From IMG/VR virus record IMGVR_UViG_3300007162_000005: a stretch of DNA of 64,000 nt; one strand, 5' to 3'. Position 1 is the first letter of the stretch; each line of letters begins with the position of its first letter. The stretch comes from a virus. Shown here piece after piece: positions 1,628 to 62,292 of the stretch. The translations under genes and the position numbers were made by a program. The notes under the pieces are model-generated. The model saw only the letters and a list, made by a program, of their open reading frames with translations. It ran no database searches and was not told where the DNA came from.

Positions 1628-1636
1628 TAATTTAGC
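1628..1636 (-). promoter_or_regulatory. GCTAAATTA motif, putative phage late promoter
   Basis: Identical 9-mer recurs upstream of genes at 4585, 37555, 48396 and 62284. Confidence 0.55.
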
Positions 1637-4577
1637 CATTGATTCGTTCTGGAAGTTTAGAAAATACATATAATAAACCTTCTTCTCCAAGGTTACTAAT
1701 CGGTTTAGGATATTCTATCTTGTATGTCCCTATGTTAGAATCAGTTCCACCATAGTGTTGTTTAACATCATCTTTAGTCTTGCATAGCCACAAGGCATAC
1801 TTAGCTTCTGGGTATTCACCATGTATAACATCCATGAGAGTTTCAATATAGATATCAAAGTCTTCTATAGCCTCACCACTATCAATGAGCTCAATAAACT
1901 CTTTAAGTAGCTTACCTTGTTCTTCTGTGTGCTTAAAGGTTTTTAATACTGTGTCAGGTATATCTATGTTTCCTAGTTCTGTTGTTTCATGAACAACAAC
2001 TTTAAGTAGACTTCTTTGACCATCACCAAAGTAATCATCATTCCTATAACCCACAGATTCATTCTTGCTTTCTAATAGCCCACGTGTTATATCATCATAG
2101 GTATCTTCTGGAATCTTGGTTGTAAGGTTATATGTCTCATTACTACTCGATGTGTTGACCATCAACTCATATATACCCCATTCAATGAGGTAGTACATCC
2201 AGCTGATGATAGCTTTCTTCTGGGCTGGGTTAGGAACCTTCCATAAGTCAATATAGGCAAATGGTTCAAACCTATTCCCACCATTAGCCTTGATAAGGTC
2301 AAAGGCATCATGTAAGACATAGTAATCATCTCCTTCATAGTCTTGACCATCAAATATCTTAGCGTGGGTTACAAATCTCCCTACGTTAACAAACTTACCT
2401 TCCCTAGAAATAAAGATAGGCCCACGTTCTGGATTGTCAGAGAAAGTTAAGGATTTATATACTTCTCTGTGGTCTATGTCTTCTTTAATGATTGACTCAC
2501 CTAACTTACCTGTGCTATAATATTGTTTAATCAAATCAAGTATTTCTTTAGCACTTTTGTTTTCTAACTGTGAACTATCTATCTTACCTAGTTTTGGTGT
2601 ATATATTTTTAACTCTTGTTTAATAACATTATTAATAATCTGTAATATCTTTTCATACTGTTGAGATGTAGGTGTATTATTATTAAAGAAAATGAATGCA
2701 TCACCTTCATATGGACTCCAAATTACAGCAATAGAGCCAGTAAGGGCTTCAAAGGTAATGCTTAAGTCTTCACTTGAAGTAGAAGGAATAAGCCCAGTAT
2801 GCTTTAAAAACATATCAACCTGTGCATGACTCCAACCATAGTGGGATGATAGGTAACTTCTTTCTGATGCTTCACTTTCACTAAACATATCTATAAAGCT
2901 TCCATCTGGTAACAGGTAAGAAGGTGTTCCTTCTGGTATATCTTCACTAAAGCCAAACTCTTCTTTAACAGCATCAATTATGTTTTTGTCGGTTAAAGTT
3001 ATTGCTTCTAGGTCAACATCTTCACTTAGCTTACCTGTGTTGTAATAATGTTTGATACTATTAATAATATGAGCTGCATCTTTTGACAGTTCATCTCTTC
3101 CAGAATCTTTAAGGGTAAATACTACCCCTTTCTTTTTGTTATCTACTATAACCCGTGCTTCCTTATAGTCTAGTTTGCTTAAATATGATTGAAGTTTCTT
3201 ATACTGTTCTTCAGTAGGTTCTACTTTACCAAGATTGATTCCTGTAAAGTTATACCCATCATTAATAGCAATAGAGTTAGTAACCTCTTCAAAGAATGTG
3301 CTCCCTGTAGTGACAGGTGGAACAGTCATACCAGCATCTGCTAAAAACTTATCAACAAAGGAATGGTCTATGGTTTCTCTTTTTGTGCCGTCGTTTGTAT
3401 AAACGATGTTTGTTAAAAAGTTACCATCAGGTAATATATAGAAGTCTTCTCCAGCTTGAATATCAAACGTATGAGGGGTAATCTTAAAGTATTCATCAGA
3501 ACTTCTTAGGATGTTTAAAACATTTTCTTTAGTAGCCGGTATTGTTTCGAGTTCAACATCATTGGCTTCCATCATTCTTGAGCCTTCCATCTTTCTTGTG
3601 ATATAGTATTCTTTTATTACATTGATTATTGTCTTTGCTTCGTCAACAATCCTGTCTGTTTGAGAGTTAATATGGAAATCTTTAAACATCTTACCGTCTT
3701 CTATAACAACAAAGTCTTTATCCGAATCACTCTTTACTATATATGTTTCTAATGTTTTATACTGAGCCGGGGTTAATGGTGCACTGTTTAACATAATTAC
3801 AATGTGATTTGTACCATCATCAATAGCTACTGAGCCTGTGACCTTCTCAAAGAATAGACTTCTATCTTCTGTTGGTTTTTCTGTCATTCCTACACCTGCT
3901 AGGAACTTATCAACAAAGGAATGGTCACGATATATCTTCATAGTATCTTCATCATACAAGTTAGTTACAACCATTCTGCCATCTGGGAGAATGTAAAAGT
4001 CATCCCCAGTGTTAATCTCACTAAAAGAAGTTGTAATCAAGAACTCTTCAGAACTGTCTTCGAGAAGCTTGATAATGTTTTCCTTAGTTGGGGATATGGC
4101 TTCAATCCCTTGTTCCTCTTGCTCTTCATTGAGGTCTTTAACCACCATAAGGTCAGCAAAGGGGATGACACCATTATAGAAGTATGTTATACTGTTAAAG
4201 TACTGTTCTAATGAAGTAAGGTCACCATCCTCAATGATATCAGTATTCCAGGTATTGTTCCAGTCAATCTCAAGTAAAGAATGGTCTAGCTTGGCTGTAG
4301 GTATCTTAAAGACAATAACCTCTTCTGTTTCAAGTCTATCATCATCACTGCCTTCTACAAAGGCTTCAGCACTACCAGCATCAGTATCAAGGAACACACC
4401 TTGGTCATATTGAAGATGCCATAAAGACTTATAACCAGACTTAAGGCTACCTAGCCCATTCTTCTTAATGCTGTCCAGTGTATTACTGAAAGTAGCATGA
4501 AAAAGAAACTCAGGAAGGTATTGTCCAAAGTCACCAGTTTTAATAACATCTTTGATTTGTTGCTTAATAGTGTCCAT
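1632..4577 (-). CDS. 981-aa multidomain protein: N-terminal ADP-ribosyltransferase-like domain, 3-4 tandem ~180-aa repeats, C-terminal domain
   Basis: FHATFSNTLDSIKKNGL...GVFL resembles the KptA/ART-type HxT motif; repeated YILPDG...DHSFVDKFL...QY..L units. Confidence 0.7.
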   Translation of the reverse strand: MDTIKQQIKDVIKTGDFGQYLPEFLFHATFSNTLDSIKKNGLGSLKSGYKSLWHLQYDQGVFLDTDAGSAEAFVEGSDDDRLETEEVIVFKIPTAKLDHSLLEIDWNNTWNTDIIEDGDLTSLEQYFNSITYFYNGVIPFADLMVVKDLNEEQEEQGIEAISPTKENIIKLLEDSSEEFLITTSFSEINTGDDFYILPDGRMVVTNLYDEDTMKIYRDHSFVDKFLAGVGMTEKPTEDRSLFFEKVTGSVAIDDGTNHIVIMLNSAPLTPAQYKTLETYIVKSDSDKDFVVIEDGKMFKDFHINSQTDRIVDEAKTIINVIKEYYITRKMEGSRMMEANDVELETIPATKENVLNILRSSDEYFKITPHTFDIQAGEDFYILPDGNFLTNIVYTNDGTKRETIDHSFVDKFLADAGMTVPPVTTGSTFFEEVTNSIAINDGYNFTGINLGKVEPTEEQYKKLQSYLSKLDYKEARVIVDNKKKGVVFTLKDSGRDELSKDAAHIINSIKHYYNTGKLSEDVDLEAITLTDKNIIDAVKEEFGFSEDIPEGTPSYLLPDGSFIDMFSESEASERSYLSSHYGWSHAQVDMFLKHTGLIPSTSSEDLSITFEALTGSIAVIWSPYEGDAFIFFNNNTPTSQQYEKILQIINNVIKQELKIYTPKLGKIDSSQLENKSAKEILDLIKQYYSTGKLGESIIKEDIDHREVYKSLTFSDNPERGPIFISREGKFVNVGRFVTHAKIFDGQDYEGDDYYVLHDAFDLIKANGGNRFEPFAYIDLWKVPNPAQKKAIISWMYYLIEWGIYELMVNTSSSNETYNLTTKIPEDTYDDITRGLLESKNESVGYRNDDYFGDGQRSLLKVVVHETTELGNIDIPDTVLKTFKHTEEQGKLLKEFIELIDSGEAIEDFDIYIETLMDVIHGEYPEAKYALWLCKTKDDVKQHYGGTDSNIGTYKIEYPKPISNLGEEGLLYVFSKLPERING

Positions 4578-4584
4578 CTCTACT

Positions 4585-4593
4585 TAATTTAGC
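4585..4593 (-). promoter_or_regulatory. GCTAAATTA motif, putative late promoter
   Basis: Between a terminator and the ATG of the 981-aa gene. Confidence 0.55.
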
Positions 4594-34512: not shown

Positions 34513-35628
34513 TTAATTAGCTTGAACCTCTGGAATAATGTTACTAATATCATTTCGTTTAATGACAGCTGCCCGGTTATTCCCAAAAGATACAACAATA
34601 TACTGTCCTTCAGATGTTTCTAAAGTTAACTTTAAATCATTTGTATCAAAACTTGCTTCATATGGTTTCTTTAATTTATCAACTTTATTAACATACTTAA
34701 CTTCTTCATTGTTTTCTTTTTTAGAGTCCAACACTGTTACACCATCAACTCCAAAACTCATGTGTGTAGAACCAAGGTCTGAACCGTTTTTAGAGAATAA
34801 AGACAATCTGTTGATAGATTCTAATAAGGTTAATCTGTCAATCGTAATAGTGTAGTCATAGGTTTCTTCAGTCCATTTTCTAATTCCTTGAACCGGGAAC
34901 TTATTGACAAGCTCTTCTTTAGTTGTAATAATAGATGTTAAAGTTACTTGGTCATCAGAGAAAGAAACCTTTTGGGCTACAACACCGCTTTCAAGTGCAT
35001 CGAATCCCATGTTAAAGTTAACAGATTCTGATTTAAATAGTTTAAACAGTCTGACAATCTTTTCAGTTAAAGTAAGAACTACCTTTTGGTCTAGTGTAAA
35101 GTTATTAACACATGCACCGTTTGCAAACGTAATGGCACCTTTTTCATCAATATAGAAGAGTTTTTGAACAGGGGAAGCACCACCATTCTTGAGTAATTCC
35201 TTGGTGTTATACTTAAGGATAGATTGTAAGATAGAGTTTTTAATACTGAAAGTATTTGTTACATTTTCAATGTTAATTTTAGGCAATTCAACAATCTCAG
35301 TGTCATCAAAAATCATTGGTATCTTATAGTTACCATTTGCTTTTAAAACTAATGTATTATCCACAACATCTAGTTCCAAGGTTCCTGTGGTTATTTTACT
35401 GATAAGATTAAGGAAGAGCTGGGCATTAACTACAGCATGAAGCTTAACTTCAATGTCTAATGGCATCTTTACAGACACATAGTATTCCTTATTAGTAACG
35501 TTTAAGTTTAATACCTTACCGTTGGCTTCTAATTCTAAGGTTTCATTAACGACAGATGAAATGTTAGTGTCTACAGCTTCTAAAATCTTTTTGCAGCTTT
35601 CTTGGAACGACTTTGTTTGAATAATCAT
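34513..35628 (-). CDS. dnaN: Beta sliding clamp-like protein
   Basis: 371 aa (typical DnaN length), three-domain alpha/beta pattern, next to the polymerase, dnaX-type loader in the same block. Confidence 0.7.
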   Translation of the reverse strand: MIIQTKSFQESCKKILEAVDTNISSVVNETLELEANGKVLNLNVTNKEYYVSVKMPLDIEVKLHAVVNAQLFLNLISKITTGTLELDVVDNTLVLKANGNYKIPMIFDDTEIVELPKINIENVTNTFSIKNSILQSILKYNTKELLKNGGASPVQKLFYIDEKGAITFANGACVNNFTLDQKVVLTLTEKIVRLFKLFKSESVNFNMGFDALESGVVAQKVSFSDDQVTLTSIITTKEELVNKFPVQGIRKWTEETYDYTITIDRLTLLESINRLSLFSKNGSDLGSTHMSFGVDGVTVLDSKKENNEEVKYVNKVDKLKKPYEASFDTNDLKLTLETSEGQYIVVSFGNNRAAVIKRNDISNIIPEVQAN

Positions 35629-35655
35629 ATTTATGTCCTTTCTTTATTATACAAC

Positions 35656-36749
35656 TTATTCAGTGAGTATTCTTCTAATTTCTTCTGGAGACATTTCGGT
35701 ATGCTCTAAAATAATGTGTTGAATTGCATCCTCTTTGCTTAAGCTTGGAAGTATCTTTTTATACTCCTGTTTTAATGTGCTAACATAATCGTTATAGTAC
35801 CAGTGCTCACTAACATCAGCATCACATTTGAATGGTACAGAAGAAACATCATCAATACAGGTCTTCATAACAGAAGTAAGTCTTTTAGCTACTTTATCTG
35901 CATTTTCTTTAGGGCATTCACCAATTAACTCATCATGCACCGTTAGAAGTAATTTAAACCCTAACTTATTTAACTCTTCATCTCTAAAGAGTTTATTCAT
36001 GGCAATCTTAGTCATGGTAGCCGAACCACCTTGGATTCTAGCATTAACACACTGACGTTCTGCCTGAGCAATAAAACCACCATTATTCTTTATCTTAATA
36101 CCGTATTTTGCTGCATCTTGAGTTACAGCATCAACTTCTTTTTTAAATTTGGCATTTTCTAATTTTTTATAGAAGAGAGCAATGACTTTATCATCTTGTT
36201 TTCTATCAGCAGTGCCAAGAAGTGGATTAAAGGGGGATTGGTCTTTTGAAGCATTATTATAGGATATTTCAAATCTAGGTAAGGATATATCCGGCAATCT
36301 ACGTCTTCTGCCCCACAAGTCTTCTACATAGCCATTTTTCTTGGCAAAGGCTGTGGTTTCATCCATCCAACCCTTTACTTTAGGGAAAGAGTTATAGAAA
36401 CCATCAATAATAGACTGGGCTTCTTGAATAGAGCTTCCAATGCTTTCAGCAACAGCTGTAACACCTTGACCATACATAATACCTAACAAAAGTGTTTTAC
36501 AGGCATTACGTCTCTTTTTACCTTCTGGATTAGGTGTTCCATCTTGACGGAACTCCATGTTATCCCAGTAATCATTCTTATAAACACTACTAGCGATGGT
36601 AGCGTATAAGTCTTTGCCATCTTTATAAGCTTGAATCATATCTTCGTCACCGGAGTAGTTTGAAAGCATTCGTGGTTCTTGTTGCGAACTCACGAAAAGT
36701 CACTTCCAACTAAAGTATAAGGAACTCTAGTTTTAATTGACTTTTTCAT
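35656..36749 (-). CDS. polA: Family A DNA polymerase, polymerase-domain gene, interrupted by an 8-nt insert in motif A (segments 36693-36749 and 35656-36684)
   Basis: Strong SD AGGAGGTG then MKKSIKTRVPYTLVGSDFS-stop; after 8 nt QQEPR continues to motif B (RRNACKTLLLGIMYG) and motif C (TVHDE). Confidence 0.88.
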
Positions 36750-36812
36750 TGACACCACCTCCTTTTCCTGTTTTTAATAAAACATTCTTCATACTATATT
36801 ATACAACTTTCT

Positions 36813-37535
36813 TTATAGCTTGAACCATTTAATATTATCTACCACAATAACCTTTTTACCATCGGGGTGTTTCTTATTGCTATTATGGGAGGATACATAT
36901 GTAATAGGCTCTCCTTTAATAGATTTTTTAATTTTCCTTTGGAACGTACACTCAGCATAGTTATCACCAAACGGATGAAAGGCTTCAAACCACCACTTTG
37001 TTGCATCTTTTATGGAATGGAACTCAAACCTTTCTCCAGTATTGAGTACACAATAGCAACCTACTGAACGAGTATCACCGGAGCCGAAGTTCTTGTTCCC
37101 CTTCATAGCCTCAGAAATTTTATCTCTGTGCTCTTTAGAGAAGGGTTTCTTCTCTCTATATGCCTTCATTGATAATGAAATCTTGCTTCTTACATCTTTA
37201 CTTCTCATTTTAGCATCATGGTTATCCTTTACCAATCCCACGTTCATAGGGTTATCATCACCGCCATTTGTCATATTATACCCATTATTGAAGGAATCAT
37301 ATAAAGATACATAATATTTCTCTTTTTTAAGAAGTTCTTCATAATTGTCTGTTTCGTCTATTATTTCAATGGTGAAGGCTTCTATACCATACTTCCTCAT
37401 TGAGCTATATAGATGCCTCTGGTCACCGTTTTTTAGTCTGGTAAGGTGTCCATACCACCTATCCTCTAAACTCTTCTCTGTGATGCCAATATAGCACTTA
37501 TTCGTCATCCTGTTAGTAATCTTATACACAATCAT
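36813..37535 (-). mobile_element. Free-standing GIY-YIG homing endonuclease (NUMOD3 motifs) between the two polA genes
   Basis: IVYKITN...CYIGIT...RW..H...E..Y...NGYN; FSKEHRDKISEAMKG. Confidence 0.9.
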
Positions 37536-37554
37536 ATATTATTTCTCCTTTACC

Positions 37555-37578
37555 TAATTTAGCTGTGACTTTTCACAG
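37555..37578 (-). promoter_or_regulatory. GCTAAATTA late-type motif with an abutting palindromic CTGTGA-AAAG-TCACAG element (operator-like)
   Basis: Directly upstream of the endonuclease SD; shares GTGACTTTTC with polA motif A in inverted orientation. Confidence 0.6.
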
Positions 37579-37595
37579 TAAGATATAGGTGGGTG

Positions 37596-39176
37596 TTAAA
37601 TATATAAATATGTGTACTTTTCTTCAGTTTTCACTCTTTTTACTACATCTCCTTCAATAATATCACCTGGAACAACATCTTTGACACGTTTCCACCCATT
37701 ACTTGTTTGAACCTCTGAGATATTACTTACTTCATAAAACTCATCCTTTGATATTTCTACGTCCTTGTAGTCTGTCTTGGCTTTAAACATCATACGTATT
37801 TCTTTATTTGATGCTGGAAGCTGTTGTAGGTTAGGGTCACTAGAACTGAATCGTCCAGTGGCTGCACCATATTGATTAAAATGACCGTGAACTCTTCCAT
37901 CAATAGGATTAACCTTTTGAGGTAAGGAATCGATAAAAGCATCTAATAGTTTAACTAAACCACGTCTTTCTAAGATAAGTTTAGATAGAGGTATATTGAT
38001 AGCCTCAAGAATATCTTCCCCAGTACCACGTGGACTTTCTTTACTTACTTGCTCAACACCAATTACATCATATAACAGGATAGCAAGTTGAGTCGGACTT
38101 CCTAAGTTAATAACATCAGGTAATTGTTCTGATTTGGATTTACCACCATCTTCACCTGACTTCTTTTTAGGTTTAGTGTTAGCATCAGGAGTTGTTCTCC
38201 AGGCATCTATTCTAGATTTATACTTGTCTAATTCAACGGCAATTCTTTTATCTAATTCATCTAACTTAGCATGATATTTGACACTAAGTCTCTTTGCGTA
38301 TTCTTTGTCAAGTTCAATACCAGCGAGTTCCATTTCTGCAACTACACGAATAACAGGCATTTCTACTTCACGGAAAAGGTTATTAACTTTTTTATACTCT
38401 TCACTTTCCATGATTGGTTTTTGATATTCATATAGTTTATAAGTCATGTAAGGGTCTGTAGCAGCATATAATGCAAAAACTTCAGGTGGAAAGATAGCAT
38501 ATTCTTCTTTTTCAAATAAGTCTTCAATAGAGTATTTTTCTTGTTCTGAATCAATATGTAAAATATACTGTTGTTTTAATCCTGCCAATTCATTTTCATC
38601 AATAAGCTTGGCAGCAATCATTGTATCCCAATAGCAGGGAAGTTCGATACCACAAGTTGTTTTGATAACTTGGAAATCAAACTTTGAGTTGTGCATGATG
38701 GTCAAAATTTGAGCATCTACAACACGAGACAGTTCTTCTTTTATATCTTGTTCTGTAAGTTGATTTGGGAGCTTTTCTCCGGTTTTATAATCAACATGGT
38801 TTACAGGAATGTATACTTTTTTATTATTAGGAGTATAGACACAGAGACCCATTAACTTTGCAGTTAGTGGGTCTAGGGAGTTATTTGTTTCAGTGTCTAT
38901 AGCGATGATGTCGTTATGAATAGCTTGAGTTATATAATTAGAGAACTCTTGTTTCGTTCTAATAACTAAAACATCATCTTTTTGTTTTTCTAAGGTTTTA
39001 TTAACTTTCTCAGTGATTAAAGAAATCTTTTCTTCTACCGATATTTTCTTAGACTTGATTTTCTTTTCAACAGTGACTTTAGCCTCTTTGGGCTTTTTGA
39101 CCTTGTTGATTATTTTTTGGGTCTTTTCCGCTGAGTTAGAAACACCCAATTCAAAATTAAAGATATCGGCATTCAT
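37596..39176 (-). CDS. polA: Family A DNA polymerase N-terminal gene (3'-5' exonuclease, thumb, start of palm) with a Hint-like tail
   Basis: AIDTET, HNSKFD, YAATD; TGRFSSSDPNLQQLP...IRMMFKA, then a non-polymerase tail EVQTSNGWKRVKDVVPGD. Confidence 0.9.
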   Translation of the reverse strand: MNADIFNFELGVSNSAEKTQKIINKVKKPKEAKVTVEKKIKSKKISVEEKISLITEKVNKTLEKQKDDVLVIRTKQEFSNYITQAIHNDIIAIDTETNNSLDPLTAKLMGLCVYTPNNKKVYIPVNHVDYKTGEKLPNQLTEQDIKEELSRVVDAQILTIMHNSKFDFQVIKTTCGIELPCYWDTMIAAKLIDENELAGLKQQYILHIDSEQEKYSIEDLFEKEEYAIFPPEVFALYAATDPYMTYKLYEYQKPIMESEEYKKVNNLFREVEMPVIRVVAEMELAGIELDKEYAKRLSVKYHAKLDELDKRIAVELDKYKSRIDAWRTTPDANTKPKKKSGEDGGKSKSEQLPDVINLGSPTQLAILLYDVIGVEQVSKESPRGTGEDILEAINIPLSKLILERRGLVKLLDAFIDSLPQKVNPIDGRVHGHFNQYGAATGRFSSSDPNLQQLPASNKEIRMMFKAKTDYKDVEISKDEFYEVSNISEVQTSNGWKRVKDVVPGDIIEGDVVKRVKTEEKYTYLYI

Positions 39177-39190
39177 TTTGTTAATACCTA

Positions 39191-39991
39191 TTAAAACTTA
39201 TAACGTTGAGGTCTGCCTTCGATTGGGCTAGATTGACCTGTTGTGGTAGGCTTTGGTTGTTCGGGAGCAGGGGTCGTAGGTTGAGGAGCTGGTTTAGGAG
39301 TTGCAGGAGCAGCAGAAACTGCTGGTCTAGAATAACTACCAGTCTTTTCAGCAATAGCTTCAGTGCGTGGGAAATCACCAGTTTTTAAGAAGGTGTTAAT
39401 TTCATCAGCAGTCTTAACTAAGTAAAAGCTTCCAGCCATTTTGAAACCTTCAAAGTCAGCAAAATCTTTGACATAGATTTCAGGTTTGTAGATTTCTTGA
39501 CGAACAGGGATAATGTCATAGGTGGTGTCAGTGCTTCCACGTGTACCACGACGTTTAACCTTGAAAACGAAGTTGGTTAAATCACCATATTCATCCATGA
39601 ATGATTTTAATTCACGTGCGAACTTGGCAGGACGTTCCCAAACACGTGCTTTAGGCACAATGTTTCCGTTGTCATCTTTAACGTATTCAATAAGCTTAAC
39701 GTAGAACTTATCAACAACTTTATTACCACTTAAGCAAAGTGGGCATTTAGCCATTGGTTCGTTTGCTTCACGTAAGCAGAAAACACGTTTGTAAAGTTCT
39801 TTTCCATCTTTACCTGTTGTTTTCACAACGTGAACAGTAACAATATTAAATTCTTGTACTGAACTATAGGCGAAACGCACAACTGCGTCATCACCATCGT
39901 CTTTGAGCGAAAAGTAACCAACTTTATATTCCTTGTTGGATGTGTTAGTACTTTTCTTGTTTTCGTAATCTGCGAAACTAATGTTTGCCAT
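39191..39991 (-). CDS. ssb: Single-stranded DNA-binding protein (gp32-like, Zn-binding)
   Basis: FSLKDDGDDAVVRF, H...C...CPLC, G.RGSTDTTY, low-complexity C-terminal tail. Confidence 0.75.
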   Translation of the reverse strand: MANISFADYENKKSTNTSNKEYKVGYFSLKDDGDDAVVRFAYSSVQEFNIVTVHVVKTTGKDGKELYKRVFCLREANEPMAKCPLCLSGNKVVDKFYVKLIEYVKDDNGNIVPKARVWERPAKFARELKSFMDEYGDLTNFVFKVKRRGTRGSTDTTYDIIPVRQEIYKPEIYVKDFADFEGFKMAGSFYLVKTADEINTFLKTGDFPRTEAIAEKTGSYSRPAVSAAPATPKPAPQPTTPAPEQPKPTTTGQSSPIEGRPQRYKF

Positions 39992-40022
39992 AATTTACCT
40001 CTTTATGTTTTTTTTTATTTAT

Positions 40023-48395: not shown

Positions 48396-48404
48396 TAATT
48401 TAGC
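48396..48404 (-). promoter_or_regulatory. GCTAAATTA motif
   Basis: Exact copy of the recurrent 9-mer. Confidence 0.5.
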
Positions 48405-62283: not shown

Positions 62284-62292
62284 TAATTTAGC
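62284..62292 (-). promoter_or_regulatory. GCTAAATTA motif, putative late promoter of the baseplate operon
   Basis: Exact 9-mer upstream of the gp25-like gene. Confidence 0.6.

Follow-up and report, generated by a model that had tools for sequence, protein, structure and literature searches.

An inverted copy of the uninterrupted polA motif-A site as a putative operator upstream of a free-standing GIY-YIG homing endonuclease gene in uncultured phages

In the phage sequence analysed here (IMG/VR record IMGVR_UViG_3300007162_000005; the whole stretch of 64,000 nucleotides is called the window), the leader of a GIY-YIG homing endonuclease gene (HEG) carries an inverted, gap-free copy of the polA motif-A sequence that is itself interrupted by a short coding gap in the resident polymerase gene. 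Eleven other distinct loci from metagenomes, with HEGs that are 42–85% identical, also have the element ahead of the HEG, although the copy in one of them (L110) is degenerate. The sequence relationship between the element and motif A, its conservation, its distribution and its position were established in this analysis. Taking these together, we consider it moderately probable that the element is an operator of the I-TevI type, to which the DNA-binding domain of the endonuclease would bind over its own promoter.

In this part of the window every gene is on the minus strand, and the features of the polA cassette are listed in Table 1. The N-terminal polA gene (polA-N) is separated from the HEG by 60 nt, and the spacer that follows the HEG (63 nt) contains the sequence TGTATAAT, a likely candidate for a separate promoter of the polA C-terminal gene (polA-C). 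This sequence stands 48 nt before the ATG of the short ORF and is also kept in the relative L028. The short ORF itself, which begins with an ATG at 36749 and ends in TGA, is kept in relatives. The resident motif A reads GAC TTT TCG (TGAGTTCG) CAA CAA GAA, where the parentheses enclose a gap that is likely to be bypassed by the ribosome. The 8 nt of the gap are complementary in sequence to the Glu-Pro-Arg codons that follow (UCGUGAGUUC ... GAACCACGA), giving a stem-loop that starts from the take-off codon (36670–36700, minus strand), and a further local pairing is possible between GUGACUUUU of motif A and AAAAGUCA, where the short ORF begins (fold z = −3.0). At its 3′ end, polA-N repeats in degenerate form the sequence found before motif A, and the tail encoded there, KTEEKYTYLYI, is a degenerate duplicate of KTRVPYTLV, with which the short ORF begins. 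A split-intein reading of this tail was rejected, as neither a Cys/Ser start nor a terminal His-Asn block was present. About 55 aa (…NGWKRVKDVVPGDII…; window 37596–37780, minus strand) are inserted between IRMMFKA and motif A; this insertion is common to L001 (1380–1596) and is missing from the closest uninterrupted polA, that of L016.

Table 1. Features of the polA–endonuclease cassette in the window.
Feature	Position	Strand	Description
polA N-terminal gene, 526 aa	37596–39176	−	3′–5′ exonuclease domain and first part of family A polymerase domain
Target-site mimic (putative operator)	37565–37584	−	Gene strand ATCTTACTGTGAAAAGTCAC; reverse complement is a 16/20 copy of motif A
6-bp stem with 4-nt loop, CTGTGA CTTT TCACAG	37563–37578	.	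Perfect; inside the mimic
GCTAAATTA motif	37555–37563	−	Holds −10-like TAAATT (37556–37561), 3 nt downstream of the mimic
Shine-Dalgarno sequence of the HEG, AAAGGAG	37545–37551	−	Predicted to be paired, with the AUG, to the end of the polA-N ORF in read-through RNA
GIY-YIG homing endonuclease gene (HEG), 240 aa, P0002	36813–37535	−	
Extended −10-like TGTATAAT	36798–36805	−	Just past the HEG stop codon; identified by sequence only
Short ORF with strong ribosome-binding site MKKSIKTRVPYTLVGSDFS	36693–36749	−	Ends at the take-off Ser codon TCG (36693–36695)
8-nt coding gap TGAGTTCG	36685–36692	−	Stop codon, 2 nt, landing TCG; interrupts the copied site
Resident interrupted motif-A site	36676–36704	−	Presumed HEG recognition site, split by the gap
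Rest of the polA C-terminal part	35656–36684	−	QQEPR... to stop codon

The original prediction, made from the letters of the window, described an insert-free copy of the motif-A codons D-F-S-Q on the plus strand just upstream of the HEG, and the letters that it described were confirmed. The letters at 37564–37578 are TGTGACTTTTCACAG. The string GTGACTTTTC, which the copy shares with motif A, occurs exactly twice in the window, at 36694–36703 (minus strand) and at 37565–37574 (plus strand), compared with 0.14 exact copies expected under a mononucleotide model of the window. GCTAAATTA was likewise found directly 3′ of the hairpin on the gene strand, in contact with the copy as described. The copy proved to be longer than had been noted. 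When GTGACTTTTCG and CAACAAGAA were joined to give the gap-free polA motif-A 20-mer, 37565–37584 matched it in inverted orientation at 16 of 20 positions, the copied codons of gap-free motif A being S-D-F-S-Q-Q-E, and no other place on either strand of the entire 64-kb window matched better. The probability of at least 16 matches in 20 was 0.06 per 64 kb, 0.002 per 2 kb and <0.0005 for the intergenic region of ~60 nt (61 nt were used). Because the copy spans the position of the gap and runs into the Gln-Gln-Glu codons, it is a copy of the uninterrupted site. Beyond ~18–20 nt the similarity stops, and over 40 nt on either side the flanks resemble each other no more than shuffled controls do. 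An extension of the copy into these flanks, with GCTAAATTA and the Shine-Dalgarno (SD) sequence derived from polA upstream of motif A, was not significant and was discarded.

The perfect hairpin within the copy, CTGTGA-N4-TCACAG, is unique in the window (0.01 expected). Among the relatives, a 6-bp hairpin was seen only in L028, and it was weakened in a few others. One of its pairs is unpaired in 8 of 11 sequences, and in the alignment 70.4% of cells were paired, against 69.6% in shuffles, with no covariation. Since pairing is no better than in shuffled alignments, the sequence rather than the fold has been kept, and the hairpin can be regarded as a by-product of the TGA...TCA symmetry inherent in the copied codons xxT GAC TTT TCx CAA. 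No intrinsic terminator (a G+C-rich stem followed by a U run) was found in 36500–37800; the sequence after the hairpin is CUAAAUUAGG.

Relatives were collected as the contigs of HEG homologues obtained by protein-cluster look-ups, which gave 12 further distinct loci (L028, L029/30, L031/32, L033, L034/35, L036, L037/38, L039/40, L041, L042, L110 and L111), plus L025 from IMG/VR. The homologues of the HEG in a large protein collection are 34–85% identical to it. No near-identical phage record was found, the best protein-level relative among GenBank phages was an unannotated 4-kb fragment, and scans of IMG/VR and JGI with the HEG protein returned remote relatives only. In every locus long enough to include both flanks, the HEG is located inside polA, just 5′ of motif A.

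The pattern CTT[AG][CT]TG[AT][CG]AAAA[AG]TCA was present in the HEG leader of 11 of 13 loci; L111 has a variant of it and L110 a degenerate form. Its reverse complement, TGA(C/T)TTTT(C/G)(A/T)CA(A/G)(C/T)AAG, is the motif-A coding sequence without a gap. When 11 leaders were aligned, the invariant columns were concentrated in the element, only two being found outside it, one of which is the G of the start codon; otherwise the leaders have fully diverged between HEGs that are 42–60% identical. The best inverted match to a locus's own gap-free 20-mer was the element in 9 of 11 distinct loci tested (13–17 of 20 positions). These best matches were always 770–880 nt upstream, and background maxima were mostly 12–14. 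Such repeated matches are far beyond chance. The resident gaps vary in length (about 5–11 nt; 6, 7, 8, 10 and 11 were counted) and in sequence, and the mimic is never gapped. Every resident polA of the element-bearing loci has either a stop-containing gap or an intron at the copied site. That the mimic reads across the place of the gap provides independent sequence evidence that the gap lies inside the recognition site and serves as an immunity mark, in line with the claim of the original prediction that motif A is the homing site. The recognition site was itself deduced from the insertion point of the HEG, the gaps and the intron position; the uninterrupted copy supports this part of the claim, and the binding and cleavage that it entails are presumed.

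Matches between the element and the 18-nt target in the phage's own polA averaged 14.25/18 (range, 11–17), as against 13.79/18 for foreign polA. In L037, the element matched its own polA at only 11 of 18 positions and the family element was nonetheless kept. A site that is read by a conserved protein would be expected to keep the family consensus in this way instead of following the polA of its phage. The element was not seen to co-evolve in general with the polA of its own phage, the one case being L111. In the target of L111, GCC (Ala) replaces the first CAA, and two otherwise invariant positions of the element have changed to match; the L111 HEG is also the most divergent and has an extra 49-aa insert in its DNA-binding half. 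This co-change, a covariation from one lineage, fits a shift in protein specificity and is compatible with RNA pairing too. A second apparent case of covariation, in L110, fell, because its element scored 13/18 on its own target and 13–14/18 on other targets. Three of the six variable positions of the element are third codon positions, which is no more than suggestive of a codon-position logic.

A scan of IMG/VR with the element pattern gave 67 matches, none of them beside a homologue of the window HEG. About one-third of these matched the window polA proteins by tblastn and proved to be genuine motif-A sites of other phages, in which polA is uninterrupted and lies on the opposite strand; the remainder gave nothing with any of the three query proteins. 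The matches in IMG/VR thus show only that the element equals a natural allele of the target.

The element was absent from the uninterrupted polA genes of L009–11 and L016, from split or gapped polA without a HEG between the halves (L012/13 and L018/22), and from the vicinity of other types of HEG, namely those of L001/L007 (LAGLIDADG by motif) and L014 (a 310-aa protein with a weak NUMOD3 match only). In L025, where the family HEG is 45% identical, its ATG overlaps the stop codon of polA-N, and neither a leader nor an element is present. A plain hairpin in endonuclease-free relatives would have spoken against the original prediction, and the absence of the element from the HEG-less L012/13 and L018/22 disposes of that concern. 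These loci appear to have lost the HEG and retained the split and the gap. They consist of split polA, short ORF and motif-A gap with no endonuclease gene (L012/L013, ~4440–4530; L018/L022, ~4430–4520), and the HEG-less gaps read TCT TAG TCT and GAA TAG CCT GAG. In L018/22/24 the gap is located three codons further downstream, after Glu. In L001, the closest GenBank relative, polA is interrupted a second time, by a group I intron without an ORF (1060–1293; RF00028, 76.5 bits) between ...SSSNPNL and QNIPSH..., upstream of its LAGLIDADG-type HEG and a 6-nt, TAG-containing motif-A gap. Signs of alternative genetic codes were also observed, with TAG (L006, ~4500–4520) or TAA (L041, ~985–1000) at the second motif-A Gln codon, and the L039/L040 HEG (2501–3244) can be translated only if TGA encodes Trp.

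The motif GCTAAATTA next to the mimic occurs in five exact copies in the window (1628–1636, 4585–4593, 37555–37563, 48396–48404 and 62284–62292), where 0.83 were expected (P = 0.0016); each copy is intergenic and on the minus strand, which is the gene strand. Four of the five are 7–35 nt before the starts of ORFs of 128–981 aa, and the fifth is followed by a sigma-70-like promoter that has a long leader. GCTAAATTA is therefore a candidate phage-specific promoter or leader motif, and a role as a promoter is plausible. In L001, TGCTAAATTG precedes the unrelated LAGLIDADG-type HEG. A scan for the sigma-70 consensus found no promoter at the mimic, the TAAATT of the window having neither a TG extension nor a convincing −35. 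A TAnnnT hexamer (TAAATT, TAAACT, TATATT, TAAAGT or TACTAT) is present 3–22 nt downstream of the element in all element-bearing loci. In L037, L041 and L042 the element itself provides TTGACA, 17–19 nt from the hexamer, and in L110 the element overlaps TATAAT. Overall, the element is located over or next to promoter-like hexamers, 14–57 nt from the HEG start. Because the element is 3, 11 or ~17 nt from the −10-like hexamer, occlusion could not follow one geometry in all three classes of loci.

The leader may contain a further control signal. In read-through RNA, the leader is predicted to fold so that the SD and the AUG of the HEG are buried (−23 kcal/mol; z = −3.6 to −4.2 in the window), and most relatives are similar. 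The pairing partners are the last codons of polA-N and a 17-nt patch past its stop (37533–37615, minus strand). This patch differs between the window and the closest relative, L028 (170–280), yet it pairs with a slightly different SD in both. The folds suggest that a ribosome-binding-site trap for read-through transcripts has been maintained. A transcript that starts after TAAATT would lose the 5′ arm of the SD-hiding stem, an arrangement that is shared by endonuclease genes of T4 (PMC2988022).

The protein that would read the element has a GIY-YIG domain (Pfam PF01541, E = 6.5e-9), and its similarity to the I-TevI catalytic domain was detected both by sequence (phmmer, E = 5e-6) and by structure, as the N-terminal domain of the HEG model (mean pLDDT, 86.5) could be superimposed on this domain (TM 0.84 on target, E = 9e-6). 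Residues Y4, Y15, G17, R26, H30, E72 and N87, which include the catalytic Tyr, Tyr, Arg, Glu and Asn, are invariant among 23 homologues. A NUMOD3 match fell below the cut-off (18.6 vs 20.4 bits). Downstream of the catalytic domain, the model predicts confident helices at 100–145 and a conserved beta-beta-alpha C-terminal domain at 160–240. This domain had no significant match to the fold of the I-TevI DNA-binding domain, and a weak match to I-HmuI (E = 0.29).

One relative carries the family HEG in a different setting. In L110, the HEG (46% identical) resides in an apparent group I intron (2340–2380 and 3190–3385) inserted precisely at the boundary of the Ser and Gln codons in motif A, where the free-standing cassettes have their gaps. 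The assignment is based on a P1 pairing at the 5′ end, a AAGATATAGTCC motif and a reconstructed exon junction that reads DYS|QQEPK; this ORF-bearing intron was not detected by the Rfam search. Its true guide is at the 5′ end of the intron, and the element-like sequence TTGAGTATAATCAC is separate from it, 32 nt before the HEG start.

We propose the following mechanism. A GIY-YIG enzyme with an I-TevI-like catalytic domain, NUMOD3-type linker helices and a conserved C-terminal domain would recognize the uninterrupted polA motif-A DNA of naive phages, and its own phage would be protected because a ribosome-hopped gap of 5–11 nt, or an intron, splits the site. An intact, inverted 18–20-bp copy of the site would be kept over the −35/spacer region of the proximal HEG promoter; in some relatives it would cover the −35 or the −10 box. 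Once enough enzyme had been made, it would bind to the copy and block transcription; the copy would remain uncut because the binding core alone has been copied, without its flanks. A second layer of control is likely to be provided by the burial of the ribosome-binding site and AUG of the HEG in a stem of the polA-N read-through RNA. Binding by the HEG, the promoter, repression and the lack of cleavage are what we infer from the sequence data. The operator reading of the original prediction thus stands in that the copy is conserved, confined to the family, near promoter-like hexamers and lost where the leader or the HEG is lost; its assignment of GCTAAATTA as the promoter is no more than plausible. 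The mimic might also act as a sensor of prey, an extension of the operator reading that we regard as rather unlikely. In a single infection the operator would be the sole intact recognition site, so that the enzyme would keep its own gene off, and in a mixed infection the many polA sites of a naive phage would draw the enzyme off the operator, thereby turning the HEG on when prey is present.

Three other explanations of the element were weighed against the operator. The complementarity between the element and motif A is real at the RNA level, and the original prediction had offered as an alternative an internal guide that loops out the 8 nt: the element in the mRNA would pair with both sides of the gap ~870 nt downstream and thereby aid the hop or an excision of RNA. 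The duplex, with the gap bulged, reaches −17.6 kcal/mol in the window (z = −3.6) and up to −23.9 in L031; moreover, the order of the element from 5′ to 3′ (complement of the 3′ exon, then of the 5′ exon) is that of a group I internal guide, and the L111 covariation agrees with such pairing. The duplexes are, however, practically equal with own and foreign polA (−14.9 vs −14.3 kcal/mol), those of 3 of 11 loci (L029, L037 and L039; z = −0.3 to −1.2) are no better than shuffled controls, and an A stands opposite the invariant C of GAC in 8 of 12 elements. Gapped polA genes that lack the HEG (L012/13 and L018/22) also lack the element, which indicates that the hop is independent of it. In addition, the 5′ half of the duplex would lie under a ribosome that stands at the take-off codon, and polA-C apparently has its own promoter downstream of the HEG. 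As for excision, the Rfam search of 35000–40000 gave no match at E ≤ 1 to a group I intron or any other known RNA family, and the same search does find the L001 group I intron (76.5 bits); the non-coding DNA on each side of the HEG ORF amounts to only ~60 nt, and in the intron-borne L110 the real guide is separate from the element. An RNA guide is thus highly improbable, and this part of the original prediction is poorly supported.

The element could instead be an ordinary cis-regulatory piece of the leader, such as the −35/spacer of a promoter, the tip of the stem that hides the ribosome-binding site, or both, in which case its likeness to motif A would be irrelevant to recognition by a protein. 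The leaders do fold with the SD and AUG paired, the element does offer TTGACA or TTGAGA hexamers, and the TGA...TCA symmetry yields small hairpins in about half of the loci. Yet the likeness to the gap-free target (15–17/20), repeated in 9 of 11 distinct loci tested, far exceeds chance; the hairpin is neither conserved nor covarying, the element has no consistent role in the stems that hide the ribosome-binding site, its sequence stays constant while its distance to the −10-like hexamer varies, and in L111 it changes along with the target. We therefore judge this explanation unlikely. A relic without function, left by an inverted duplication in break repair at the origin of the cassette or as a fossil guide of an ancestral intron, would be in keeping with the apparent group I intron that carries a HEG of this family at the exact Ser|Gln junction (L110) and with the re-copied target pieces that are held by MobA-type cassettes (bioRxiv 10.1101/2022.08.31.505936). 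Against this, the element is the only conserved island in otherwise diverged leaders and is lost exactly where the leader or the HEG is lost, and in L110 it is found alongside the true guide, distinct from it; such an origin seems to us quite improbable.

If the operator reading is true, self-repression in the style of I-TevI extends from intron-encoded enzymes of T4 to a free-standing family in uncultured phages, and target mimicry at promoters may be a general way for selfish genes to limit their cost. The mimic would be the phage's internal record of the intact recognition sequence, tying the motif-A gap to immunity against the endonuclease, and the proposed link between short ribosomal hops in polA and a homing endonuclease becomes directly testable. 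Such mimics could also predict the target sites of uncharacterized homing endonucleases from sequence alone, which would be useful for enzyme discovery.

The group I internal guide (P1/P10) resembles the element in being an inverted complement of the joined exons across the insertion point, but no intron was detected in 35000–40000 of the window, and the element is located ~870 nt upstream of the junction rather than just inside a 5′ splice site. The polA cassette shares more with the MobA/gene 60 cassette of T4-like phages (Bonocora et al. 2011), in which a free-standing HEG splits an essential replication gene. In both cassettes the upstream gene has acquired a novel tail, and the target region that was deleted is supplied again by the cassette, as a copy at the start of the downstream gene; the duplicated polA-N tail resembles the new C-terminal tail and re-copied target segment of the MobA cassettes. 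The immunity conferred by a ribosome-bypassed, stop-containing gap in the MobA site (bioRxiv 10.1101/2022.08.31.505936) has a parallel in the polA cassette, and relatives in which the HEG was lost, leaving the split and gap, exist for both. MobA differs in being an HNH enzyme with a 50-nt gap and elaborate signals, whereas the polA cassette has a GIY-YIG enzyme and gaps of 5–11 nt. A target mimic or operator upstream of mobA is not described in bioRxiv 10.1101/2022.08.31.505936, where the word “operator” is absent.

The closest known counterpart of the element is the operator of I-TevI, the enzyme of the phage T4 td intron (Edgell et al.). The C-terminal domain of I-TevI binds a 20-bp primary site and the enzyme cuts at a distance; an operator over its own late promoter has 15 of 20 nt in common with the homing site and is cut ~100-fold less, because no cleavage motif is present at the right distance (PMC2988022). 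The likeness of the polA element to its target, 16/20 in the window and 11–17 of 18 across the loci, is of a comparable degree. In the polA cassette, too, a GIY-YIG enzyme with a catalytic domain of the I-TevI fold is preceded by a ~20-bp copy of its presumed target, ~75–85% identical and just upstream of the endonuclease ORF. As in I-TevI, the copy is near (here, presumptive) promoter elements and comprises the binding core without its flanks, and an additional RNA stem, predicted in our case, hides the ribosome-binding site. Unlike I-TevI, the HEG described here is free-standing (intron-borne in L110 only), the mimic is inverted, no zinc-finger ruler was identified, and the resident target is guarded by a short translational gap instead of an intron.
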